DNA of 64,000 bases. It comes from Heptranchias perlo. Lineage: Eukaryota. A program made the position numbers and the translations under genes. The stretch is from NCBI RefSeq assembly GCF_035084215.1, contig NC_090331.1, forward strand, positions 63,798,001 through 63,862,000, in the 5' to 3' direction. Below the pieces are notes generated by a model that saw nothing but the letters and a program-made list of their open reading frames with translations, was not told the origin of the DNA and ran no database searches. This document shows, piece by piece, positions 15,701 through 55,525 of the stretch (positions are counted from its first letter, which is position 1; each line of letters starts with the position of its first letter).

Positions 15701-16877
15701 TTTAAACCGTAGAATTTGATAATTATACTGGATTATGTAGGTTGTTTATTAATTCATTAACGCCTGTTTTCTGATTTAAAAGGTTTAATAATTAAAGGTA
15801 TCCAAGATGGTATTGGTTACATTGAGTCCACTATGATGCGTTTGGTGATGTTAGTGAACAATTTCAAATAAATAAACTGTTTAGAAAAATTGTTAGTACA
15901 AACGAAAAGGAAGCTGATCACAGCCAATTTGCCCCAGTGTTTTCTTGCCTTGCAAATAATGCAGCCCTTAAATAAGCTTTGATAAGGTTTTTCTATCCAG
16001 GAGTTTCTTATTTGCATTCCATGTGTATTTTGTTAATAAAAACGCTCACAGCATACTTTAAAATAAGATTATTTTTGCAGGAAAATAAATATACAACAGA
16101 AAATGTACACCTGAATTAATATAAATTGAATCTAGCTAAGGAACTGGTAGAGCAAGATGTTTTGCACAAGCTGATGATTGATGTTTCTTGCAGTCTTTTA
16201 ATTCTTCCAACTCATATGCATGTACTTTAGACAAAAGAATCAAAAGACTGCGAGGAACGTGGATTATCAGCTTGTCTTAAACAGTTTTCTCTACCTGTTC
16301 CTTAGCCTGATTCAATTTGCATTGATTGTTTGGGTAATTCTAAGAATTAGAGTGGGATGGATGGAATTGCTCAAATATACCTAAAATTTTGGTTACAAAT
16401 ACTTTGTGAGATTAAAATAAAGAATACCTCTGAATATATCAGCGTCTTTAATAGAGGCATGGTTTTTGGAATGGGAGAAGAGGATCACATTCGCCTGGAT
16501 TAGGGAAATGTTAGATGTGGTTTTCTAAATTGACTAGTCTATTTTCTAACATATTAAAATGAGCAATTATGAGTCTCTAAACCATGCGACATGTCAACAC
16601 ACACTGTTCAATGCATTTACAAAAGACCACAGCCTTTCTCCAAGTGTTAGAAACATTGGTCCGGTATTTACTGTAAGTGGCGAAAGAACGTTGTCTGCCG
16701 TTCGTCAGACTTGCCCTTGGCCATATACTTTCCATAAGCTTTTGCACTGGTAGTTGCTGTAAATTGGAGATCTAAACAGAGGTGCCCTCTACAGGGCTTC
16801 TGGGACCTATGTGAACAGGCCATGCAACTGTGTATCTTCTTAACCAATGAGATTGAAGAATCGTTAATGAGTAGCTC

Positions 16878-19009
16878 GCCGCCGCGGAGTGTCTGATTAA
16901 GGTTAACGGATCCTTGACGGCGCCCCTTCGCTTCGGGAGAGGAGTGCGTCAGGGGTGCCCCATGTCCTGCCAATTATATACCATCTGCGTAGAGCCTTTC
17001 CTGCGCCTCTTGCGAAAGAGGCTGTCGGGACTGGCTCTGCGCGAGCCGGGCGTGGAGGTCGTCCTTTCGGCTTACGCCGACGACGTGCTCCTCATGGTCA
17101 CCGATCCCCTTGACTTGCGGAGAATGCGCGAGTGCCAAGAGGTCTACTCTGCCGCGTCCTCCGCAAGAATCAACTGGGAGAAATGTTCCGGACTCCTGGT
17201 GGGTCAGTGGCGGGTGGACTCCATGCCGGAGGAGCTCAGGGCTTTCGCCTGGAGTACCACGCACCTCCGGTACCTGGGAGTCTACCTCAGCCCTGCCGAG
17301 GAAGCCTGGCCGGCGAACTGGGTAGAGCTGGAGGCCAAAGTCACCGCTCGCCTGGCACGCTGGACAGGACTGCTCCGAGTGTTATCCTACAGGGGTCGAG
17401 TGCTGGTCATAAACCAGCTGGTGGCCGCCATGTTGTGGTACCGGTTGGTTCCTTTGACCCCCCCTTGATTTTGTCGCCAAGATTCAGAGGAAGTTCGTCG
17501 ATTTCTTCTGGGCCAAAGGGATGCACTGGGTCGCTGCCGCGGTCCTGAGTCTCCCGCTTAGGGAGGGCGGTCAGGGGCTGGTGTGCGTCCGCACCCAGGT
17601 GGCAACTTTCCGCCTTCGGACGCTGCAGCGATACCTGTACGCGGAGCGTCCTCTTAGATGGCGTGCGCTGGCGACGTATTTTTTCCGCCAGCTGCACGGC
17701 CTGAACTACGACACGCAGCTCCTGTTCGTCTCGCTGTTGGGCAGCCGCACGTCTTTGCAGGAGCTGCCTGTCTTGTACCAGGATCTGCTCAGGGTCTGGA
17801 CCATGGTCGCCTCCAGCCGGAGCTCTCGCCCGTCGGGGGTAGCGGCCGTCCTGCAGGAGCCGCTGCTCGGGAATCCGTTCCTCCGCGATGTCGGCTTCGG
17901 CCGCTCGTGGCTGACGGAGCGGAGGGCTGTGGCCGGTCGGGTGACCAGAGTCAGGGACGTCCTGGATGGCGGAGGGTCGGGTTGGCTCGAGCCGTGGGCG
18001 CTCGCCGCTCGCATGTCCTCGTGGCGTGCCGGGGACGCGGCCACCGCCATCCAGGCGTTGAAATCGGCGCTCGGCCCTGACTCCACTCGGGGTGTGGAGG
18101 CGGCTCAAGCGTGCGGAGCCATCCCGTCCGACCTGACCCCCGTTCGGACGGAATTCCTCCTCGGCGCCAAACCCCGGAACCTCCCTCGGAGGGCCGCGCC
18201 TCACAACTTGAGCCGTCTCTCGGAAATTCCCTCCGTGCCGTTTCACACCGCGCGGAGGGATTTCCTGTACGGGCTGCTCCTGCACACCATCCACTTCCTC
18301 GCCCTCGTCTCTCGCCCGGACACGCCCTGGCGTGCCATCCTGCTGTCCGGCGGAGACGGGGGTCCCCAGTGGGAGGCTCTCTATACAGGGGTCCTCCCGT
18401 GTTACTTTGGGGATCTGGGATGGAGGGTGTTGCACGGAGCAGTCCCGTGCAACAGGCGTTTACGCCATTTTACGGACACCCAGGCCGCTTGCATTTTCTG
18501 CGGCCTGGAGGAGTCCGTTTTTCATTTGTACACTGGGTGTGCGAGACTGCAGCCCCTGTTCCATTATTTGGAGGGGCTGCTCCTCAAGTTCTGGCTGCAC
18601 TTTAGTCCCACGCTCCTGATCTTTGGCCGCCCGGTGAGGAGGGGGGCGGGCAGGTCAGTGGACGTCCTCGTGGGCCTGCTCCTGGGCCTGTCCAAGGTGG
18701 CTATCCACAGGTCCAGGATGCTCGCAGTCCGTGGGGGCGAGCGCTCGGCCTGTCTGCCTCTCTTTCGCGGGTTGCTCCGCGCCCGGGTGGCCCTGGAGAT
18801 GGAGCACGCGGTGTCTGCCGGTACGCTTGAGGCATTCCGCGACTGGTGGGCACCGCAGGGGCTGGAGTGCATCCTGAACGAGGATAATAAAATTTTGATT
18901 TGAACTCTTGGTTTTGGTTTGTTTGGTTTTTAGTTGTTAAGCACACCCCACACCCCCCCTTCTTATAAAAGGGGGGCCTAATTAAAAAAAGAAAAGAGAA
19001 AAAAAAAAA
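16878..19009 (+). mobile_element. Tx1/L1-clade non-LTR retrotransposon, 5'-truncated, young and GC-rich
   Basis: GVRQGCPMS, YADD, YLGV, then CIFCGLEESVFHLYTGC zinc knuckle; one frameshift at the C-run near 17460; 3' stem-loop CCCCCCTT...AAGGGGGG and A-rich tail. Confidence 0.9.
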
Positions 19010-29160: not shown

Positions 29161-29850
29161 TTGTGTGCAGTGTAAGCATAAGGGATGAAAATCCTGTGGG
29201 CTTTGTTAATTAGGAACAGTTCATTATAATATCAATCACTGAGTTACTTGTGTATGTTTCTTTCTCTGGCCCCTTGCCAGCACATTATACAATCTGCTCA
29301 TAAGTGTTAGTGCTAAAGAACATACAGCTATACTGTGAAATATATTATGATTTCACTGAATATATGAGATATTGATGGTAGCGTGCTGCTTGGTTTGAAA
29401 TACAAGCACTAACAGCCCAACTGGAAATAATTAATGCTAATACTGGGTAGCAAAATGGGAAAATGTTCCATTCCTCAGCATTAAAATCCCTCGCCATGAT
29501 GGACACAATTTAATAAAATGAAAAAAAATCATAAGAATAAAGGCAAGTAGAAATTTTACACAGAGCAGATATACTTTCAAGTAAAACAGAACCAACTATA
29601 AATTGGAGCACCTGCTACCTAAGGGCTAAGATCTTTAGTGCAATTGGTGTACATTCCAATTGGATTCATGACTCAAAGGCGTGCATGTTTTTGGCTACTT
29701 TGTAAATCTAATTGAGAATGGAAGCTATAACTATTGGAAAGGTTATAGCTCTTTTGACTTTGATTTAACTGATGCTTAATTGTCTTTCTATTCTCTTTAG
29801 CTTCTGACTGTCACTGTAACAAATCTCCCAATTCTGATGTCGAAGGTACG

Positions 29851-30924
29851 ATGGAGCCACAGTGCAAAAAGAGAAAAACTGGAGCAATCGACACTTTCAC
29901 ATGGGAGCTGATGCCTGTACTTTCAGATGAGAAGTCATGTGAAGTTGAACTTCTAGAAGCATACGCGGCCCCTATTATCAATAAAAAACAAACCTCTTGT
30001 CTTGTTAAACAACTGGCTGATGTCTACCCACTGAACAATCTCCCACATATCAAGAGAGTACGAGCCTGCAGGGATAAGAACAGTGATCATCCTTTAGAAA
30101 TCATCATTTGCCTATTTAGGGATTTGAATGGCCCAGATGTACCAAATAGAGGAGTGTCCCTTAGTGATCTCTTTCCTGATGGAAAGGCTAATGGCATTGG
30201 ACTTGGAGAACCTTTCCAGGTCAAGATACCAGCATACCAACCGTTGACCAGACCTCAGTTTGAAGCAGCTAGCCAGCACTGGCCAACATCATTCCATGAA
30301 AACAAGCAAGTGACTGAAGCCCTCCGAGGCCAGCTTTTTAGCACTGAAGAGAAAGCAAAGATGCAGACTTTTATGGAAAAAGCTATCAAAGCAGCAAAAG
30401 TAGGAAAGGAAATGGGAATGGAACCAGTAGGTGCAGTGATTGTTAACCCAGCCACTGACGAGGTTATCGCAGTAGGTCACGACTGCAGAAATGGACCAAA
30501 TCCATTGCTCCATGCAGTTATGGTGTGTATTGATCTAGTTGCCTACAGGCAAGGTGGTGGTGCTTTTAATCATAACAAATATCCGAACTGTCATTTTAGG
30601 TCTGTAGAATCTTTTTCAAGTGACCGTACAATCGACATTGGTAAACCTTTGCTTCCTTTAGAGGATCATAGCTCCATAGGAGCTACTGCAAATGGGTTGC
30701 CTTACATATGCACTGAGTATGATCTGTATGTTTCCAGAGAACCATGTGTAATGTGTGCTATGGCACTGGTCCATTCCAGAATACGCACAGTTTTTTATGC
30801 AACATTCTCTCCTGATGGAGCATTGGGCACTAAATATAAAATACATACAAAGAAGGATCTTAATCATCATTATGATGTTTTTAAAGGACTGATGGAAAAG
30901 GAATGTCAACTTCTTTCATCTTAA
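29851..30924 (+). CDS. ADAT3: ADAT3, non-catalytic subunit of tRNA adenosine-34 deaminase; single coding exon, 357 aa
   Basis: LPHIKRV, HWPTSFH, PLLHAVMVCID (HAV replaces catalytic HAE), YICTEYDLY..EPCVMCAMALVHSRI, LNHHYDVF; polypyrimidine + TAG acceptor ending 29800. Confidence 0.95.
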   Translation: MEPQCKKRKTGAIDTFTWELMPVLSDEKSCEVELLEAYAAPIINKKQTSCLVKQLADVYPLNNLPHIKRVRACRDKNSDHPLEIIICLFRDLNGPDVPNRGVSLSDLFPDGKANGIGLGEPFQVKIPAYQPLTRPQFEAASQHWPTSFHENKQVTEALRGQLFSTEEKAKMQTFMEKAIKAAKVGKEMGMEPVGAVIVNPATDEVIAVGHDCRNGPNPLLHAVMVCIDLVAYRQGGGAFNHNKYPNCHFRSVESFSSDRTIDIGKPLLPLEDHSSIGATANGLPYICTEYDLYVSREPCVMCAMALVHSRIRTVFYATFSPDGALGTKYKIHTKKDLNHHYDVFKGLMEKECQLLSS

Positions 30925-33224: not shown

Positions 33225-34315
33225 ATGGAATAAAAACGGAAAATGCTGGAAATAGATGGCAAATCAGACTGTGGGGAAAGAAACCTAGTTAACGTTTCAG
33301 GTCGATGATCTTTCGTCAGAACTGGAAGAAGTTAAAGATTTAACAACAGTTTTTAAGCAAGTACAGAGCCAGCAAAAAAGGGAGAGGAGGACAGAACAAA
33401 AGGGAAGGTCTGAGAGGATGGAGGGCAGGAGTGATTAAATGACAACAGGGGTGATGGTGCAGGGCAAGGAGGCTGGTAAGACAAGTAAAGAAACAAGAGA
33501 TGGGCAATGGGGAACTGTAAATGTTACCAGCAGCGACTGTCTGGAAAAAATGGGAGCAATGGTTATGATCTGAAGTTATTGAAATCAATGATGAGTCCAG
33601 AAGTTTGTGAAGTACCTAATCGAAAGATGAGCTGCTGTTCCTCGAGCTTCTGTTGAGCTTCCTTGGAACAGTGTAGGAGGCTAAGGACAGAGGTTAGAGT
33701 GGGAGTGGGACGGAGAATTATAATGGCAAGCAACCAGAAGGTCAGGGCTATGCTTGCAGACTGAGCCGAGGTGTTCAGCAAAGTGATCACCCAGTCTGAG
33801 TTTGGTCTCCCCAATGTGGAGGAGACAACATCCTGAGCAGCAAATACAGTATACTAAATTGAAAGAAGTACAAGCAAATCGCTATTTCACCTGGAAAGTG
33901 ATTGGGGCCTTGGATGGTGGGAAGGGAGGAGGTGAAAGGGCAGGTGTAGCATCCCCTGCGCGTGGGAAGGAGAGCAGACGTGGGTGATAGAAGTGTGGAC
34001 CAGGGTATTGGGGAGGGAACGGTCCCTCCGGGTGCTTGGAGGGGAGGGAAAGATGGTAGTGGCATTGTGCTGGAGATGGCGGAGGATGATACGTTGAATG
34101 TGGAGGATGGTGGGGTGGAAGGTGAGGACAAGGGGCCCCTATCGTGGTTCTGGGAGGGAGGGGAAGAGGTGAGGGCAGAAGTGCGGGAAATGGAATGGAC
34201 ACGGTCGAGGGGCCCTGTCAACCACAGTGGAGGGAAATCCTCAGTTGAGGAAAAAGGAAGACACATCGGAAGCACTGGTGTGGAAGGTGACATCATCAGA
34301 ACAGTTGCGACAAGG
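33225..34315 (-). mobile_element. Penelope-like element family 2, decayed RT C-terminus, GIY-YIG and hammerhead
   Basis: RGCYTCPFT, QQKLEEQQLIFRLGTSQTSGLIIDFNNFRS; - strand CAGTT-CTGACGA-AAGATCATCGACCT-GAAA-CGTT-AACT at about 33287-33324. Confidence 0.8.
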
Positions 34316-35935: not shown

Positions 35936-38900
35936 TGGGTAAATGGAGTTGAAGTATAGATCAGCTATGATCCAATTGAATGCTGGATCAGGCTTGATGA
36001 ACTGAATAGCATACTCCTGTTACTATGGTCCTTACATTGGAAGTGGTGTAGCCAGGCATCAGTTGTGGGTGCACTTTTGACCTTATATATGTGATTTGGA
36101 CTTGAATAGGGAACATAGAATCTGTTAATGATACAAATGTAGGGAGTTGGGCAAACAGCAAGGAGGATTGTAAATTTGATCAGTATGTTAGCAAAATGGG
36201 CACAAGTAGATGCAATTTAATGGAGATGGTAATGGTATGTCCTGCCTTCCAGAATGAATAGAAATGCAGTAGGCAGCCTGTGCAATCTTCAGTGTGAAAT
36301 GTCATGGTCTAAGGCTAATTATGTGACACTCTGGCCTCATACCTAAGAGTAAGTTTTAGATCATAGGCAATGCAGGGCTGCCTATGGAAACTGCCCTTTG
36401 GTGCAACCATGGGAGAGCACCCAAATTGTAACCACCTAATCTGTGTCTTTTTAAAATGTTTAAGCTGATGGTACTGGGAAGTAGAATACTTTTGTCACTC
36501 CATGTTAGCACCAAGCACTCCCACATCAAATACAGCAGTCGCATTCAAAGTTACTCTTACTCTGTCCTAACAATGTGTCTCAGTCACATCAAACGTCCTT
36601 GGAGCCTCTGGGTAAATTGGTGCAAAGTTCTTTAAACAATACCATAATGTGTTAGGCACCTACAAGGACTGGGTTAGCTCAAGAGGGTAGAGGGGCCTCT
36701 GCAAGAGCCATCACCGTACTGTGGTATCAAACATTGAAGTAGTGGACTGTTATTCTAGGTTGTCTGGGTGTGCATCCTTTGGAAAATTCAAAAAAAAGTT
36801 TCCACACAAAAGGAGTCCAAACTGGTGCATTTATTTGTTGATAACACAACCTAACAAGTATGGGGATACCCAATTGATCTGAGGAGGTCTAGGTTGGGCT
36901 TACCACTGTTCCTGTTTTGAAATTGAGAAGTACTTGTTACTCTCAGTCTTATCCATATTCATTGCCTGGGCTGAAATTTCTATTTTATATGAATTTGAGC
37001 AATAGAATAGTATAAAGTAATGATTCATTAACCAAAATTCCTGGACCTCCTTCCATGTTACTCAGTCCCTAGTGTTTTGTTATGCCAGCAATCTCTGGCC
37101 TCTCTGTGCTTTTCCTATTGTGATTTCCAGCTAACCCATGTTTCAAGATGTCAGTGTCCAAATTAATCTTAGTCTTATGTACACCACAGTATTTGGCTTC
37201 TCTGAATACACCCCACTATGACAATCCAGGGTGCTCCATTTACAGATCAGATCCAGATGGGCACATTTAAAAAAAACTGGTTGATCTATGATACTCACTT
37301 TTTTTTTCTCTCCCTTTATTTCTTTCCTTATATCAGAACTATGGAAGGATACCTTAATATAACTTGTTCCAGTGTGAAATGCTCAAATAATCCCCAATTC
37401 CTGGAATTCATTACACTTATTTTTGGTCAGAACAAAATTTAAATTTTGCCACTCTGCACTCTTAGGATCTATTCTTGTTTAACCTCTCAGCACATATCAG
37501 CAGACATGATAATGCAGTACTTACATGTGAACTGAACCATAGCTAAAGTTGCTTAATTTTAGAAATACAAGAATTGCAAATGACAAACAAAATTTAGATC
37601 TTCAGTGTGCAGTAGGGAAGCTAAGTACCATTGAGTGTGCACGTTGGAAACTGGAAAAACATGAAATTATTTTCCATTTCTGCAATTTAAAATATTAAAT
37701 GTATTACTGTACACAGTTCAGGATTCCATTGCATTAAAGGCCTTTGCTTTTTTTTTGGTGTTTGACCTACACCAACTTGGATTTCCAACTTGGGAGAAAA
37801 AAAAAGCAATTTCCTATGAAAATAAAAACTGGCCCATATTTATTTTATACCTGGAAATGGTTAGTGTAATTTTGTACAGTAAAATGTTACTCAGCTAGAG
37901 TATTCTTGGAGACAATGTACGCTGTAATAACAAATCTTAAATATAAAATCATGTGTTTCCAAATTAAGAGCTTAGCAGATAAATGTTCACCATATTTACA
38001 GGGGCAGATATATATATTTTTTAAAACACATTTCTTCTCTGCCCCTTCCTATTTTCACAGTTGTTACAAAATAGCATCACCATATAGCCAACTGCTCTAC
38101 TGCCATCTGAATTTAATAAGATCACTTTTCTGCATGTGAACAAAATCAGACAGTGAGGAATGGCAAAAAGGTAGGAATGGAAACAGCACCCTGAATAAAT
38201 TAGTAAGAAAAGCAACACCAAATACAAAATAAATTTTATGGAATGAAATACAATGGATTACAGCACAAGATACATTTATATCTCCATTATTTTAGCATTT
38301 AACAATTATTCCAGTTCTTATTGCTTCAACTTTATATGGAGGCATTCAACCATTCAAAATACAGCATTAATTCTTAAATGTCAATCAGCACAGTTTAAAA
38401 AAGATATGGGCCACAATACTGTAAGGTCAAAACTTTTATTGTTTATGAAGAATTCACTTTTCCCCCCAAAGTTGTTTTAATTGCATAGAAGGAACATACA
38501 GATGTTTTACATTTTTGGAAATACCTACTAGCAGGAAGCTCAATTGTCTCAAGCTTTTTAAAAATTGATTTTACCAATAAATAGCTCTACTCAAACCTGT
38601 TTCAGAAATCAACAGTTCAAATAAAATTAGACCAGATGTGTGGTCTTGGGTAATGCTTGCAATTTTTTTGTAAGCACTTACCACAATACAGAATGTTGAA
38701 CCAACCTCAATTACCATTTGTGCTACTGCTAACCTGCAAAGACACACTGGGGGATTTAGATGTGTCGGCAAGCACAAGTCGATGCAATTTGAGTTACTTT
38801 TACTATTCCTCACAGCAACTCCAAGAGTTATGAAAAAAACATTACATGGCTGAGAAGGGGAACAGACAACCTACTGCCAGTACTCTCAGTGTCACTATTA

Positions 38901-40055
38901 AGCCAGCTACTAAGATTTGTGCAAGAGCAGCTGGGGTGACCAGTCCAATCTCCTTTCCACATGAAGGTAGTTAGCTTCTGCTCAACACATTTTCCTGAAA
39001 GCATGCAAGAGATTGAGAAATTACCATGAGTTGTAAATGTATGAGCACTGACATATTTACCCCACCACTGTCACTAAATCAAATACATCAGTGGTACAGA
39101 AGAGCTGAGAAACCTTTGGTATCAACCAAACTGTAAAATATCATTGGTCAAAACAACCATAACTTCACACCTCAAACCACATAAGTTTTTCTGAAATACT
39201 ATTTCATAATAATTCCCTCCTCCAACATGAAATACATAGGAAGCACACTGTCCAATGCAATACCACATTGATACAACTGTTTACACTTAGTGTCAGGTGA
39301 CACTCATTATATGGAACAGAAGCATGTATCCTGCTGTATATTCCCAAGCAATTAAGTTTCACCAATCAGACCTACAATATAATTGTTTGATAAAAATTAA
39401 GCTATTAACCAAACTAGTATAATCCATACAAATGGATTACATTAGCTCAAAATAAATTTAGCATTTAGTTTGATTCTCCACAAAAATCTTGTCCTGTACC
39501 ATGATTTGCTTAATCTTTAATGAAAAAAATAACAACAGTATGCTTTTAATCAAGAGTTCCGATGACAAAAATAATCTTCTTATAAAACTCAAAAATTGCC
39601 ACCCATCTAGTAATGATGGCAGTGCCTCATTCTTCTGTACCTCAGTAAATAAACAATAAGCTATTCACTCCTCAAGTGTCCGAAGTTGCTGTAATTCCGT
39701 GCAACTCCTCTCTCTAATACACTTGTGCCAGCTTTGTAAAGCTGTGTACAACAATTTCTTCAGTACAATAAAGCTTCCAATTTCAGAACTGGGCCCGCCC
39801 AGTTTCTTGTAAGAAGCTTTTACAGTATTAAGTATTTATGCCTGCTCCAATGACCAGATTTCATTTGTTTTTTCTCCTTTTACAAAACCAACATACAAAT
39901 CCTTTTTTGAAATGGATACAAACAATGAAAATGGCATTAAGACATACAGAGACTGCTCAGTACACCCTAGTAACAGTTAACAGTACAGATTACCAGTTTT
40001 AAATCTTCCCAGTAAATGTAACAAGCTAGTTAGAACATGGGTGATGAATTCCAAA

Positions 40056-40191
40056 TTAGTATTTATTGATTCCAAGGATCCGAACTCCATGTAGTTGAGG
40101 CAGCTTAGGAATCAACACAGTCAAAAGAGATGCTGTATTGACAATAAAATGTGTTGGGTCATACTTAGTGTAAAAACTGGCCAAGAAATAC
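40056..40191 (-). CDS. ORMDL1: ORMDL1 last coding exon
   Basis: [15 protein letters not shown]...[20 protein letters not shown]; total CDS 462 nt = 153 aa + stop. Confidence 0.96.
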
Positions 40192-40305
40192 CTGCAAGAA
40201 ATAAAATTATATTTAGAAAACTCAAATGATAAGCAGCACAATATTTCCTTACAAAACTACACAGTTTAACAAAGCTCCGTAACTATTAATACCAATGTAA
40301 TTCTT

Positions 40306-40521
40306 GTAAACAATTTTACAACACCAAGTTATAGTCCAGCAATTTTATTTTAAATTCACAAGCTTTCGGAGGCTACCTCCTTCGTCAGGTGAACGATGTC
40401 ACCTGACGAAGGAGGTAGCCTCCGAAAGCTTGTGAATTTAAAATAAAATTGCTGGACTATAACTTGGTGTTGTAAAATTGTTTACAATTGTCAACCCCAG
40501 TCCATCACCGGCATCTCCACA
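40306..40521. mobile_element. Miniature fold-back copy of the same Penelope-like family; 13-bp TSD
   Basis: Perfect 89-bp inverted repeat 40304-40392 / 40399-40487, 6-nt loop; CAATGTAATTCTT at 40293-40305 and 40522-40534. Confidence 0.9.
40399..40436 (+). ncRNA. Minimal type I hammerhead ribozyme motif (mirror copy on - strand at about 40355-40393)
   Basis: TCAC-CTGACGA-A-GGAGG(TAG)CCTCC-GAAA-GCTT-GTGA: stem I, CUGANGA box, stem II, GAAA box, palindromic stem-III remnant. Confidence 0.75.
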
Positions 40522-40959
40522 CAATGTAATTCTTACTCATGGGATTCTGTATATCCGTAAAGGAAACGTTTTCAAAACAAACACCTTTTACAAGCATGTT
40601 AAATTCACTCATTTTTTCCATAATTTATTTCCATTTTTTATTACCATTGTTTCTGCAGCAGGATATACAGATTTTACAAGAATTCAAATAATTAAAAATG
40701 TTCTCTGTATCTTTAAATAAACCCACCAGCTACGAATTTATATAGATTGAAGATGGACAGGTGGCCTGCTCCCAGATCTTCACCCATCAGAAATGGCCAC
40801 TTCGTGTGGTGAAGTGCTCCTTTCGCTATTTCATGTTACCCTCACTATGAGAAAGTGCTTGATCTTCTTTCAACACAATCTCAACCAAAATGGGATCTTG
40901 TGAGCCTGCACTATATAACACTGTTACAGCATCCCATTCCATCACAAATTTTGTATTGT

Positions 40960-41500
40960 GTCAAATTTGGCGAGCTGTTCAACTGTGAGCTGAGTTTCCG
41001 AGACACAATCATCCTCTCAATCACAAAGACCGTTTACTTCCATCTCCACAACACTGCTCACCTCTGCTGCTACCTCAGCCTCTCCACTGCTGAATCCCTC
41101 ATACATGCCTTCATTAGCTCCAGAATCTACTGTTTCAAATCTCTTTGCTGGCCACACATCCTCCACAAACTCCAACTTGTCCAAACTTCACTGCTCATAT
41201 CCTATCCTGCACTTAGTTCTGGTGATCCATCACCCTTGTCCTAATCAACCTAAATTGGCTCCCCACAACTCAGATTTAAAATCTTCATCCTCGTCTTTAA
41301 TCTTTCCATGGCCTCGCTGGGTCCTACTCTAAAGAATTCCCCCCCCAAAACCTCTGCACCTCCTTTAAAAACCTTCCCAAACTCAACCCTTTCAACCAAT
41401 GTTTTGGACATCCCTCCTAATCTTGTCTTCCATTTTCTTTAGGCCTATCTATGTAGCACCTTGGGATTTTTTTTACATTACAGGCACTATATAAATACAG
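40960..41500 (+). mobile_element. L2-like LINE 3' fragment in an ORMDL1 intron
   Basis: ITKTVYFHLHNTAHL...AESLIHAFISSR...LHKLQLVQ. Confidence 0.65.
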
Positions 41501-42234
41501 TTGTTGATAGTTATGTGCTAAAACACTTTCCTCCGGATAATAAAAAATGTTTTCCTCCCTTTCTCTTCTTCAGAGCGTTCCTACAATACATCATCAGCAG
41601 AGAGAGAGCCCACGTGCTCACTCACTCTGGTGGCCTGTTCACAGACCGCTAACATTACTTTATAGATACCTACTGGTTCATAAAAGCAATGTAGAGAATA
41701 GTCTTTCTCATGGTACTTTATATTTCCCTCTATCTAAACAGAAAGCAGCCACTGGCACAGCTTTGATTGAAACCTGCATCCCAAGTGCTATCAGTGCTGT
41801 CCTCACATTTTTTGCTTTGTTGTTTGATGACAAACTTCAAATTTGGCAAGTACTGTTCTGATTGGTTCACTTTACAACAGCTAATTAAAACAATTCTGCT
41901 CTCTCCCGGCAGTATAATGTAACTACACTTAACTCAAGAGGAAAGTATAAAATGTTAGCTCAAGCAAGTTTTAATTCATATTACTCATCATAAAATTAAA
42001 GTTACATTATAATTATATTTTGTCTTATTTTAGTATGACATTTAAAAAACACAACTCATTCAATGCCGAAGACACCTTTTGGTGTTGTCTCCAATGCAGT
42101 GCTCAATTTCAGAACGATGGTGTAGCAGTGCAATGGTTTAAAGCTATCACAAGTCACCATAAACAGCACAGGGTAGTGAATGAGTTATAAGAAAGCTTAT
42201 TTGCATTTACTTAACAAAAGAAGTGGGTTCTTAC

Positions 42235-42386
42235 AGAATAATTGGCGAGATAGTAAGGAATTTTCTGGAAGACGTAAACTGTACGCCATAATCCAATTGT
42301 TCCCAGTGTGTCAGAAGTCTAGCTTTCCCTTGATCAGGTGTTTCGAAGGGTGTGCCTTTGACTGCATGCAAGAACACATACATTCC
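42235..42386 (-). CDS. ORMDL1: ORMDL1 second coding exon (absent from ORF track)
   Basis: [50 protein letters not shown]; 152 nt; TGCAG / GTAAGA. Confidence 0.96.
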
Positions 42387-43122
42387 CTGCAGATGAGAGG
42401 ATGTCAGTTAAATTACAAGTAACATTGCAAAAGGACCACCCCAACCACAAATGGATACCAAAAGTAATGGATTTATGATTCATGGCAGTTTAGCAACAAA
42501 GGAGCACCCAGGAAAATCGAGCATTTCTAAAACTAGGAAAATTGAAAAAGAATTAAGGCTTTACTTCCCACAGTGATCGCGCATTTTCTGTGACATATTT
42601 TGGAGCAAAGATTATATTTTTTAAAAGAGGAATCTTTGAAAGCAAATTTAAGACAGTAAATATACAAGGTAAAGCAGATAAACTCTTGATCACTAGTTTA
42701 AAGCTCTTTCGAAGCTTGAGAAGCAGTCTCAACCCAGTTTTAGTAGACATGGGCTCATCACAAAATAGTATCTAATTCAGCATCAACTGGCATTCTTGGA
42801 AGTCACAAGATGGTTGGTGTGGGAAATGAAAATAGGTCACACTGGTGCAGTAGGGGATGAGGCTAAGGCACAAAGAGGATGCTTTACTCTTCATCTAACC
42901 ACGCTACATCTGGTTTAAATATGCTTAATGCTTACATTTGATACCTGAAATGGAAAGTGTTCCATTCCTCAACAATATCACTTCCCAATGAGCACAATTC
43001 ACCAAAGTAAAACCTGCCGACGTACTGTTTAAACATTCCTCCCTCAACTAAAAACCAGAGTAAATGGTCATTCATCTCATTGCTGTATACAAAATGGCGG
43101 TTGCATTCACCTACATGTGAAA

Positions 43123-44423
43123 ATTGTAAACAATTTTACAACACCGAGTTATAGTCCAACAATTTTATTTGAAAATCACAAGCTTTCGGAGGCTTCCTCC
43201 TTCCTCAGGTGAATGTCAAGAAATCCTCGAACCTTTCGCATTTATAAATCACAGAACAATACCTGATGATTACAGATAATCTTTCCAACTGCCCGTTGCC
43301 AAGGCAATCAAAGTGCTCGGACAGAGAGGTGTTACCTACAGGACCACCGAATATACAAACAACCAAAAAAAAGAGAGCGAGTGAGAGGCAGAAACATTGA
43401 AACATCCGGAAGGAAGAGAAAGACAGCAAATGACCCGTTGTGTTAAAAACAGGTAACTTTTGTTCGCTGGTGGGGTTACGTGTAGCGTGACATGAACCCA
43501 AGATCCCGGTTGAGGCGGTCCTCATGGGTGTGGAACTTGGCTATCAATTTCTGCTTGACGATTTTGCGTTGTCGTGTGTCTCGAAGGCCGCCTTGGAGTC
43601 CGCTTACCCGAAGATCGGTGGCTGAATGTTCTTGACTGCTGAAGTGTTCCCCGACTGGGAGGGAACCCTCCTGTCTGGCGATTGTTGCGGTGTCCGTTCA
43701 TCCGTTGTCGCAGTGTCTGCATGGTCTCGCCAATGTACCATGCTCTGGGGCATCCTTTCCTGCAATGGTACATTGGCGAGACCATGCAGACACTGCGACA
43801 ACGGATGAACGGACACCGCGCAACAATCGCCAGACAGGAGGGTTCCCTCCCAGTCGGGGAACACTTCAGCAGTCAAGGACATTCAGCCACCAACCTTCGG
43901 GTAAGCGGACTCCAAGGCGGCCTTCGAGACACACGACAACGCAAAATCGTCGAGCAGAAATTGATAGCCAAGTTCCGCACCCATGAGGACGGCCTCAACC
44001 GGGATCTTGGGTTCATGTCACGCTACACGTAATCCCACCAGCGAACAAAAGTTATCTGTTTTTAATATAACGGGTCATTTGCTGTCTTTCTCTTCCTTCC
44101 GGATGTTTCAATGTTTCTGCCTCTCTCTCGCTCTTTTTTTTTGGTTGTTTGTATATTCGGTGGTCCTGTAGGTAACACCTCTCTGTCTGAGCACTTTGAT
44201 TGCCTTGGCAACGGGCAGTTGGAAAGATTATCTGTAATCATCAGGTATTGTTCTGTGATTTATAAATGCGAAAGGTTCGAGGATTTCTTGACATTCACCT
44301 GAGGAAGGAGGAAGCCTCCGAAAGCTTGTGATTTTCAAATAAAATTGTTGGACTATAACTTGGTGTTGTAAAATTGTTTACAATTGTCAACCCAAGTCCA
44401 TCACCGGCATCTCCACATCATGG
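43123..44423. mobile_element. Penelope-like retroelement, 5'-truncated, about 1.3 kb fold-back palindrome with GIY-YIG C-terminus and 3' UTR/pLTR on both strands; 12-bp TSD
   Basis: Arms about 43122-43741 and 43765-44385; peptide CRKGCPRAWYIGET...RMNGH...PVGEHF...EQKLI...GLNRD; CTACATGTGAAA at 43111-43122 and 44424-44435. Confidence 0.9.
44294..44331 (+). ncRNA. Minimal hammerhead motif (mirror on - strand at about 43176-43213)
   Basis: TTCAC-CTGAGGA-A-GGAGG(AAG)CCTCC-GAAA-GCTT-GTGA. Confidence 0.72.
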
Positions 44424-45544
44424 CTACATGTGAAACACTCGAACACTTCAGAGATGTGATAATGTGCTATAAATGCATGCAAATTCTGCCTCCCCCCCCC
44501 CCAACCTTTCTTAATCTAGCACTACACATGCTGCAATGCAGTTTCTGTCCAGCAAGGTTAACTTTTAAAATCAGCACCAATCTTTTTCTTTACCACCATC
44601 GAGATGTCCCAACATTGCCACCTAATGCTAACATATATCTCTGGTTGCAATCCTTGCTCGGTAAATCTAGCCAAGAAGGAAAATCTGTGAAGGAGACAAG
44701 TATTTTCCAATTTTAGCACAAGAATTTTAAAAAAGAGAACATTTGGTGGAATTTAAAATCTCCAGCATGTATTATCTCACTACCACAAAATAATAAATTC
44801 ACTTTCACATTAATACATTAACGAATTATTCCAAGTAAATAATTCAATTTCATCCAAAGCAACTGGAAAAATAAAATTGCTGCAACTTCTTTACCTCAAA
44901 AACAGTCTAATAACTATGACAAACACAATTACATTTGGCTAGTCATATTGGATTCCATTGAATGCAACTGCCTAGACTTTCCCTGCCTGTTTATCTTCTT
45001 TATTCTTTTCAAAGGTTTTAAAACAAAATTCTGCTTCCTGAGTACAAGACTAATGGCAAAAACTAAATAAGTTCAAACAGTTTTGTAAAAACTTGCATAA
45101 AATTAGTGAATATCATTTTTGTGACCTAGTTTATCAAATTACTTTCACCTAGTTAGAAAGTAGCAACCTGACATTTAGCGCAAGGCTCAAAGCAAATTAT
45201 GTGCATAGCAAGTTGCCAAAAGCTGTCCTACAATGCAATTTTTAAGTTTTCAATCCCTGATGCACAGTATTGCTTGAAAGTGGTTGTGATCTTGAAAAAA
45301 AACCTCTAAGAATCCGAACAGTTTTCTAATCAAACCAAGAAAAGTTAATAGCAAATGCTGGAAATTGACAATACACAGGTCTGTCAGTATCTGAGAAAAG
45401 AAAATCTAGCTCAATGGTTCAGGCTGAGACCCTTTGTCAAAGCTATTTTGTGAATACAATAATTTCTATGAATTTTTTTTTCACAAAGCATCATGGCACA
45501 TATAAAACTGCAAACAGCAACAGTACAGATAGTCAGGTACTCAC

Positions 45545-45718
45545 CAAGTTGTGGATTACATTTGTTAAAGTCCACACAACAGGAACGGTGAAGAAGGGGA
45601 TGCTCAAAAGCACTATATGAAGCATCCCAACACCAAGCGCATATGTCAGCCATATCCCACGGCTGTTCATTACTCTTGTGTTGGGATTCACTTCACTGTG
45701 TGCAACACCAACATTCAT
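45545..45718 (-). CDS. ORMDL1: ORMDL1 first coding exon (serine palmitoyltransferase regulator)
   Basis: [26 protein letters not shown]...IHNL, 174 nt; acceptor 8 nt upstream of ATG; donor GTGAGT; paralogue assigned by linkage to OSGEPL1 and PMS1. Confidence 0.95.
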
Positions 45719-45989
45719 CTTTTTACCTGCAAGGACAAAAAAAAGGTTTACACACCTACTTTCTTGGCGTCAAGTATTTATTTTCAGTGAGTCAGATAAA
45801 AAATAACAATGGGTGTTGAAGCTTTTGCTATCTGCTAGACAATGGTTAGAAAGGTGCGTGCTTTTCGTGGTGCATCTAATTCAATTGCTAGGATTTTCCT
45901 TAACTTCTAATTAAAATAGTCCTTTTTCAATCTACGTCCATTTATGAATGCATGTAGAATAAGTGTGGCATAGAAATATAATTAATCAT

Positions 45990-54403: not shown

Positions 54404-54653
54404 CAATTGTAAACAATTTTACAACACCAAGTTATAGTCCAGCAATTTTATTTGAAATTCACAAGCTTTCGGAGGCTTCCTCCTTCCTCAGGTGAATGTT
54501 GTGGAATGTTGTGGATTTCCACAACATTCACCCGAGGAAGGAAGAAGCCTCCGAAAGCTTGTGAATTTCAAATAAAATTGCTGGACTATAACTTGGTGTT
54601 GTAAAATTGTTTACAATTGTCAACCCCAGTCCATCACCGGCATCGCCACATCA
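54404..54653. mobile_element. Third fold-back copy, inserted in a CR1 LINE; 12-bp TSD
   Basis: About 103-bp arms 54404-54506 / 54517-54619; TGAAAGGGTGGT at 54392-54403 and 54654-54665. Confidence 0.9.
54458..54496 (-). ncRNA. Minimal hammerhead motif; the + strand mirror is mutated (CCGAGGA core, stem II mismatch)
   Basis: Reverse complement reads TTCAC-CTGAGGA-AGGAGGAAGCCTCC-GAAA-GCTT-GTGAA. Confidence 0.7.
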
Positions 54654-54949: not shown

Positions 54950-55525
54950 GCTAATTGTTCAGTCACCTATATATTGGGGAGAACAAACCAATTAGGTGAT
55001 CGCTTTGCCAAGAATTCAACTTGCCCCTTCGTATCTCACTCAGAACTTTCTGTCTTGGCCTCCTAGACTGTACACACCAAGCTCAATGCAAACTTAAGGG
55101 TTAGTGGTCTGAACCTTCTTTACCAACTTCAGACCACAGCTAGTTTTCCTGCAAGAGTCTCCCATTTAAATTTCACCACAGATCCTTCCATTCTGGAGCT
55201 ATTTTACTCACATTTTGTCCTCATACCTTTGCAAGCCCGGCTGAGATGCCTTTTGTGAATGATGAGGATTTTTCATCTTTTTACATCTGGTTATAGGCTA
55301 TTCATCTAGTATCTGTCTCTTTGTAATGGTAGCTAGCACATCTGTACTCCTAACCACTGTCCGTTGTTCTCCCCTCCCTCTTTCGTTTGGTCGGTCCTTT
55401 GAAGAGCCTTCTAGTCATCCTATATCATTCTGATGAAAATCTCCAGCTGAAACATTAGCTTGTTTTTTTTTCTTTTTGGGTGCTTTCAGAGCTGCTGTGT
55501 AACTCCAGCATATTTTATTCTTATC
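54950..55525 (+). mobile_element. Older degenerate Penelope-like 3' fragment
   Basis: TATATTGGGGAGA (YIGE) remnant and CTGATGA...GAAAC at about 55430-55452 followed by the family-2-like tail. Confidence 0.5.

Follow-up and report, generated by a model that had tools for sequence, protein, structure and literature searches.

Paired hammerhead motifs in Heptranchias perlo lie in a 216-bp inverted insertion of a Penelope-like element, within a genomic population of pairs whose fold-back position follows the TATA box

Analysing a 64,000-nucleotide window of the Heptranchias perlo genome (the whole stretch between positions 63,798,001 and 63,862,000 of contig NC_090331.1; coordinates below are counted from its first letter) together with relatives across the genome, we identified a 216-bp unit carrying two hammerhead motifs (copy A, 40306-40521) as an inverted-pLTR insertion of a Neptune/Nematis-type Penelope-like element (PLE), a published arrangement. 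We consider it fairly probable that this unit consists of two short leader copies placed head to head, made from uncleaved RNA primed at both cut ends of the target. The feature is real and of a known kind, and a single 216-bp copy, taken alone, is ordinary; its value lies in the population of pairs to which it belongs, whose fold-back position follows the TATA box of the element and not the hammerhead core or the scissile bond, the ribozyme having no part in setting it.

Copy A is bracketed by a 13-bp target-site duplication (40293-40305 on the left, + strand, its final 2 nt shared with the element as microhomology, and 40522-40534 on the right, + strand). Its inverted arms (40304-40392 and 40399-40487) measure 89 nt each, are spaced by 6 nt and are 100% complementary, as the 89-bp palindrome of an earlier note on this DNA had implied. 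The tail-less arm (40304-40398, − strand) is a leader copy that begins 11 nt before the hammerhead C3 and stops at the first, inner 3′ end, while the + arm extends 4 nt upstream of C3, and the two overlap by 1 nt at the head-to-head junction (40393-40399). Since this junction is asymmetric, the 6-nt "loop" between the arms is leader sequence, and the fold-back point placed earlier at 4-5 nt upstream of the core is accurate for the + arm only. Downstream on the + strand come a putative poly(A)-signal-like hexamer AATAAA (40442-40447, with a mirror copy at 40344-40349 on the − strand), a 6-bp hairpin (40471-40486), at whose 3′ foot tail-less arms end and which is a candidate RT-start signal, and a 34-nt tail (40488-40521), which stops just before the ORF start codon position of full-length copies. 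This tail is present on the + arm and missing from the − arm, so that the earlier description of the unit as a hammerhead, a 3′ UTR end and their mirror image was right about the inverted arms and wrong about the completeness of the mirror.

Each arm contains one minimal type-I hammerhead motif, with cores at 40403 on the + strand and 40388 on the − strand. The − strand motif (40355-40393) has its C3 at 40388, a 5-bp helix I and a predicted scissile bond at 40360/40359, the register being read from the sequence. On the + strand (40399-40435), helix I (40399-40402/40432-40435) encloses the core (40403-40409), an extra A (40410), helix II (40411-40415/40419-40423), the GAA that follows it (40424-40426), a helix III remnant consisting of a 4-nt palindrome (40427-40430) and U17 (40431). 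In the numbering that we take to apply, helix III is A15.1-G-C-U16.1, position 17 is U and the extra A follows A9; the AAGCTT regarded earlier as stem III thus presumably spans core A14 and the cleavage-site U17 as well, and the palindromic remnant stands, but helix III is reduced to the 4-nt AGCU. U17 is the weakest cleavage base. The minimal type-I features of PLE hammerheads are present (core boxes, extra base after position 9, G10.1-C11.1 and palindromic helix III remnant), and as far as sequence goes the motif matches the published minimal type, an assignment of the earlier note with which core boxes and repeat family both agree. The two motifs and the 216-bp unit had been correctly recognised there, although the motifs cover 82 of the 216 bp (38%) and do not make up most of it.

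Searches with general models were less informative: the Rfam hammerhead search proposed in the earlier note returned 0 matches in the window at gathering thresholds, and a generic core pattern matched 13 times, a number reached by 3 of 100 shuffles and so weakly above chance, which leaves the hammerhead case resting on the repeat family. In a set of 25 variants made up of copy A and the commoner sequences, 92.4% of helix I/II cells were paired, with G-U-preserving changes at 3 pairs and a two-sided change at 1 of 11 pairs, the paired-cell count being reached by 45 of 500 shuffles; covariation in stems I and II is weak. RNAalifold saw no two-sided change in the 3′ leader, and one pair of the 6-bp leader hairpin was changed on both sides, a weak signal that 40 of 500 shuffles attain; the top pair of this pre-tail hairpin (window 40471-40486 and relatives) is A-U in 174 arms and G-C in 35. 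Segment 40355-40436 folds into a single hairpin of −77.1 kcal/mol, equalled by 0 of 200 shuffles, and the predicted folding energies are −11.5 kcal/mol for one motif alone and −156/−166 kcal/mol for the whole unit. When two hammerhead copies were cofolded, helices I and II formed between the molecules but the AGCU helix did not; the AGCU/AGCU duplex is worth only −2.5 kcal/mol, and this speaks neither for nor against a dimer. The antisense of helix I and the first core bases resembles a splice donor (CAG followed by GTGAGT, GTGAAT or GTAAAT, depending on the subfamily), probably as a by-product of the ribozyme consensus. Two degenerate hammerhead-like motifs with an ACGT-type helix III remnant, from another repeat family, lie elsewhere in the window (33295-33319, −, and 55430-55452, +).

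The repeat family is large, a 16-nt piece of the motif having 83,082 exact matches in the 3.25 Gb genome, and its full-length relatives (L092, L090 and L077) carry an intact single 902-aa ORF with a reverse transcriptase (RT) match (RVT_1, E=3e-10), a C-x4-C-x2-C linker and a GIY-YIG-type end. The endonuclease fragment in the window, in copy B, reaches E=0.036 against GIY-YIG, which misses the cut-off, with a VY-YIG motif visible, and a PDB sequence search with the 902-aa ORF gave no match at E 0.01. A CX2-5CxxC linker between RT and endonuclease defines the Neptune/Nematis clade in the text of a published scheme (PMC8557442), and the linker sequence found here points to Neptune or Nematis. 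Full-length units occur in tandem, spaced by ~3.08 kb, and the hallmarks of endonuclease-bearing PLEs are all found: an ORF with RT and C-terminal GIY-YIG, tandem or inverted pLTRs, a one-sided tail and a target-site duplication. One locus (L090:2317-7920) holds a head-to-head pair of intact 902-codon ORFs separated by 187 nt that include a single hammerhead, and the 5′ end of its right arm coincides with the inner RT start site. The order along full-length copies is TATA box, hammerhead, AATAAA, hairpin, tail and ATG, the latter 121 nt after C3; the 216-bp unit therefore corresponds to two copies of the 5′ leader, and not to the 3′ UTR end alone.

Short back-to-back pairs number 15,814 in the genome by exact-motif count. 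Classified by the gap between 14-nt anchors, with exact matches that make the counts lower bounds, back-to-back pairs in general number 1,390 at 0-30 nt, 11,682 at 31-60 nt (the bin of copy A, whose gap is 48 nt), 4,132 at 61-90 nt, 864 at 91-120 nt and 198 at 301-330 nt. The genome-wide histogram of fold-back positions is hence peaked and not uniform, bearing out the suggestion of a favoured template 5′ end next to the ribozyme, on the upstream side of its core. When the anchor was placed farther downstream, pairs ending near the scissile bond numbered 580, versus 7,951 in the peak bin, and this rarity indicates that the hammerhead of the template was intact. Two candidate causes of the peak were rejected: a template starting at the cleavage site, on the same counts and on 50 listed junctions that mostly centre, by eye, on self-complementary words, and a splice acceptor, as by eye no AG precedes the core and no upstream exon appears in the junctions.

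To locate the ends, we sampled 297 arms (122 pairs and 53 single arms) from the window and ~0.5 Mb of contig C1 loci, the local samples being confined to the initial 22 Mb of a single contig. Most of the 41 long arms, 34 of which served as references, have a TATA-like box 36-47 nt upstream of C3, at a position set by the subfamily. Transcription starts about 30 nt downstream of a TATA box. The 5′ end of the longer arm falls on TATA+29/30 in 25 of 84 short pairs (first 11.7 Mb), and the 5′-end modes relative to C3 are −17/−16, −10 and −8/−4 for subfamilies with the TATA box at −46/47, −39/42 and −36/38, respectively, the assignment of references being partly circular as it draws on that same upstream match. 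Of the 100 arms listed first, 26 stop at TATA+28 to +32, 20 at +33 to +47, 4 farther down and 14 at 0 to 27 from the TATA box, and 36 extend past it; ends located 3-17 nt downstream of the predicted start (the 20 arms) require trimming. Unpaired arms, which have no partner for annealing, also end at TATA+28 to +32 in 14 of 43 cases. Genome-wide, 15,178 arms of the copy A subfamily reach −9, 10,361 reach −15 and 3,328 reach −22, and of the arms reaching −22, 25 of 30 continue to the TATA box at −46; the loss, to which sequence variation contributes, is ~15% per base across the predicted start and <1% beyond, with a baseline of 5 arms. In the TATA-40 subfamily, ends also accumulate at −16 to −18, due in part to duplicated loci and a palindromic 6-mer, and a crossing test between subfamilies was modest (16:13 vs 15:38, p=0.02). 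The depth of RNA contigs over the full-length unit tracked repeat abundance, with no starts seen. Taken together, the preferred 5′ end is best explained by a transcription start ~29-30 nt past the TATA box, as judged from the position of the box.

The pairs also record how their two arms were joined. One tailed and one tail-less arm were found in 103 of the 108 pairs in which tails could be called (14 of the 122 could not), the tail-less arms ending mostly 23-26 nt past a fixed landmark, at the hairpin foot, and the tailed arms around the ATG. A target duplication is present in 79 of 90 pairs, versus 3 of 300 swapped flanks, and measures 12-13 bp in 64 of 80. The duplication overlaps the element by at least 1 nt in 61 of 79 cases at the tail end and 62 of 79 at the other (null 25%); an overlap of 2 nt or more occurs in 42 and 44 of 79 at the two ends (null 6.5%). 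Central junctions show a 1-3 nt overlap in 40 of 106 pairs and extra bases in about half, often as short copies of nearby sequence or T/A runs (e.g. window 54500-54525). Polymerase-theta end joining leaves such short-copy fillers at junctions. In the arm comparison, 69 of 106 short pairs could be aligned over the core, 37 being dropped for lack of the core or 3′ part. Arms were identical in 39 of the 69, versus 5% for random arms, implying that the two templates usually share a source or that one RNA was used twice. At sites where both alleles are common, arms differed at one or more sites in 15 of 69 pairs and at two or more in 10, this type representing 31 of 64 arm differences, versus 7% expected from mutation; under a stricter test demanding both haplotypes in at least two other arms, 6 of 19 haplotype-discordant pairs passed. 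Two of the 21 long pairs differ at 12 of 13 and 8 of 11 such sites, each within a 12-bp duplication, and some long pairs may be separate insertions.

Several other origins were weighed against two separately primed leader copies. A snap-back, in which one cDNA (or, as Arkhipova et al. 2013 propose, an antisense RNA) folds back on itself and is copied so that the second arm derives from the first, would suit the many identical arms, copy A being among the perfect ones, and the junctions often lying on self-complementary words, and it is the reading put forward in the text of PMC3846280. We regard it as unlikely, in that a copy cannot gain a tail and the tailed arm should consequently be the 5′-longer one, yet the longer arm is the tailed one in 37 pairs, the tail-less one in 36 and neither in 17 (n=90); arms of different subfamilies within one duplication, microhomology at both target ends and the existence of loopless perfect palindromes speak against it too. 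The one-tail rule, the 12-13-bp duplications, the two-end microhomology and the mixed-subfamily arms together favour two cDNAs over self-priming. Mixed arms could alternatively have been identical at birth and diversified by later ectopic gene conversion among ~80,000 copies, as the high copy number (83,082 exact 16-mers) and the 1-4 differing sites of most discordant short pairs would allow, but conversion leaves the symmetric 5′ lengths, two-sided microhomology and one-tail rule unexplained, and in the long pairs the differences at sites with two common alleles are numerous; we hold this explanation to be quite improbable.

An unlikely explanation of the pile-up is an RT stop at a folded or protein-bound hammerhead on read-through RNA, instead of at the transcript 5′ end. 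The ends do lie within about 17 nt of the core, and 11 of 84 longer arms stop at −4, the edge of helix I; against this, a TATA box at −46 instead of −40 goes with an outer edge at −17 instead of −10, and the steepest loss in the copy A subfamily falls between −15 and −22, outside a ribozyme that the RT has already passed. Far less probable is the self-propagating, retrozyme-like non-autonomous element considered in the earlier note, whose RNA would be processed by its own ribozymes. The very large number of short palindromes, one junction that occurs twice and the derivation of retrozymes from PLE pLTRs, stated in a preprint (bioRxiv 10.64898/2026.07.22.740005), are in its favour. On the other side, 89 distinct oriented junctions among 90 pairs mean that each short palindrome arises afresh, the unit begins past the TATA box and so lacks a promoter, the pair is head to head with no tandem array, the hairpin hides both motifs, and junctions at the scissile bond are rare, so that this reading is largely refuted. 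The built-in off-switch also suggested for the hairpin fares no better, as the whole-unit fold would always win and leave no on state: whichever strand is transcribed, the complement is made before the sense hammerhead, so that the hairpin would form first and the ribozyme stay permanently off.

Under double priming of leader RNA, the series of events could run as follows. A dimeric enzyme would cut both target strands ~12 bp apart, and transcription starting ~30 nt after the TATA box would yield a ~131-nt leader comprising hammerhead, AATAAA, hairpin and tail before the ATG. Each target strand would then prime reverse transcription within the leader, one at the hairpin foot and the other at the start codon; cDNAs made on leader-starting RNA would stop at the RNA 5′ end after 100-140 nt, which would account for the pile-up observed there, and the two cDNA 3′ ends would be trimmed and joined through the 1-3 nt microhomology or short fillers, presumably by an end-joining repair route. 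For long copies the template would be read-through RNA, with priming at the downstream pLTR. The short product, promoterless and folding into a long hairpin, is probably a dead end with silent ribozymes, and short palindromes are accordingly best seen as probable by-products that record the insertion mode. By extension, we lean slightly towards the view that PLEs insert by double target-primed reverse transcription, with a dimer, cuts 12 bp apart and two RNAs used from two internal start sites, the commonest product being a promoterless palindrome ending at the cap because the start sites lie in the 5′ leader.

Copy A was inserted into the last intron of an ORMDL gene (− strand), where 113 nt separate it from the splice acceptor, the coding part of the last exon being at 40056-40191 (−), and at copy A only the − strand is seen transcribed, as host pre-mRNA. 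This ORMDL-family gene spans window 36800-45770 (−), with coding exons near 45.5-45.7 kb, at 42.23-42.39 kb and from 40191, and a long 3′ UTR covered by RNA contigs of runs X1-X4, which depart at 40191 in a splice-like manner. The window contains three copies, as stated earlier. Copy B (43123-44423), also intronic in this gene, is a long head-to-head pair joined in the endonuclease region, including the end of the endonuclease frame, with a TATA box at 44261 and a 12-bp duplication; copy C (54404-54653) is a short head-to-head pair inserted within an older repeat, with a 12-bp duplication and a U4-to-C change in its + core. Elsewhere, a 383-codon frame (29773-30924, +) with a cytidine-deaminase zinc domain (PF00383), which we take to be ADAT3-like, is accompanied by spliced-looking RNA contigs from 29799, and LINE-like remains with RT (PF00078) and zf-RVT matches occupy 16875-18903 (+).

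These results carry several implications. If double priming is correct, it would account in a single mechanism for inverted pLTRs, the tail on one side only and the duplication of fixed size, thousands of junctions would map the element's transcription start, and capped, uncleaved RNA would be the template in vivo. A substantial fraction of the hammerhead motifs tallied in a genome of this kind would be silent passengers in hairpins, and each insertion adds to host introns, in either orientation, a 90-bp hairpin with AATAAA and a donor-like site. The thousands of independent events in this family test an open mechanism, and favour both-strand priming and a template with an uncleaved hammerhead.

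Within the largely openly available main texts covered by our literature search, we found neither a start-site peak nor a model of double priming described for PLEs; one may exist in the subscription literature (Penelope reviews, Xena, Schostak 2008) or in supplements. In LINE-1 twin priming, both target ends prime and produce an inversion inside one duplication, copying two different parts of the RNA; the inversion within a single duplication is common to both systems, whereas both arms copy the same part here. The origin of tandem and inverted PLE ends is named as an open problem in the text of PMC8557442. Rotifer PLEs are the closest precedent, PMC3846280 describing inverted pLTRs, a one-sided tail, a duplication and a TATA box, which it reads as antisense self-priming. 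Pen2a_Av and relatives (PMC3846280; scheme in PMC8557442) thus share with the present family the head-to-head inverted pLTR, a one-sided tail of 30-40 bp, the duplication and the TATA box in the pLTR. The differences from Pen2a_Av are the leader-only arms, the more than 15,000 pairs and the 5′ ends peaking at TATA+29/30, together with counts that favour two primed cDNAs where that text (PMC3846280) proposes antisense self-priming.

The minimal hammerheads of metazoan PLEs (Cervera and De la Pena 2014, PMC4209133) have in common with ours the type-I core, an extra nucleotide between 9 and 10.1, G10.1-C11.1, a helix I of 4-5 bp and a palindromic 15.2/16.2. That study had also reported motifs on opposite strands at distances of about 100-700 bp, while here helix II has 4-5 bp and the cores are closer, ~15 nt apart; within that same text we found no junction histogram or link to a start site. 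Non-LTR retrozymes of animals (bioRxiv 10.64898/2026.07.22.740005) are likewise short, non-coding, hammerhead-bearing and PLE-derived, but are presented in that preprint as head-to-tail tandems with a hammerhead per unit, in contrast to the head-to-head arrangement and unique junctions of the pairs described here.

Finally, the nearest biochemical counterpart is PAc, the Poseidon element of Anolis (Frangieh et al. 2024), for which the main text (PMC11167929) reports an enzyme, predicted to be dimeric, that cuts and extends both strands, uses unprocessed RNA and has two internal RT start sites bounding the tail, ribozyme cleavage being unnecessary for insertion. Two internal start sites that bound the tail near a stem-loop are found in both systems, although PAc belongs to another clade and its start sites lie inside the ORF, whereas those proposed here end at the ATG; that main text (PMC11167929) does not tie two-strand extension to inverted insertions. 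The pairs of H. perlo thus agree with the in vitro result on PAc, in a second clade and in vivo.
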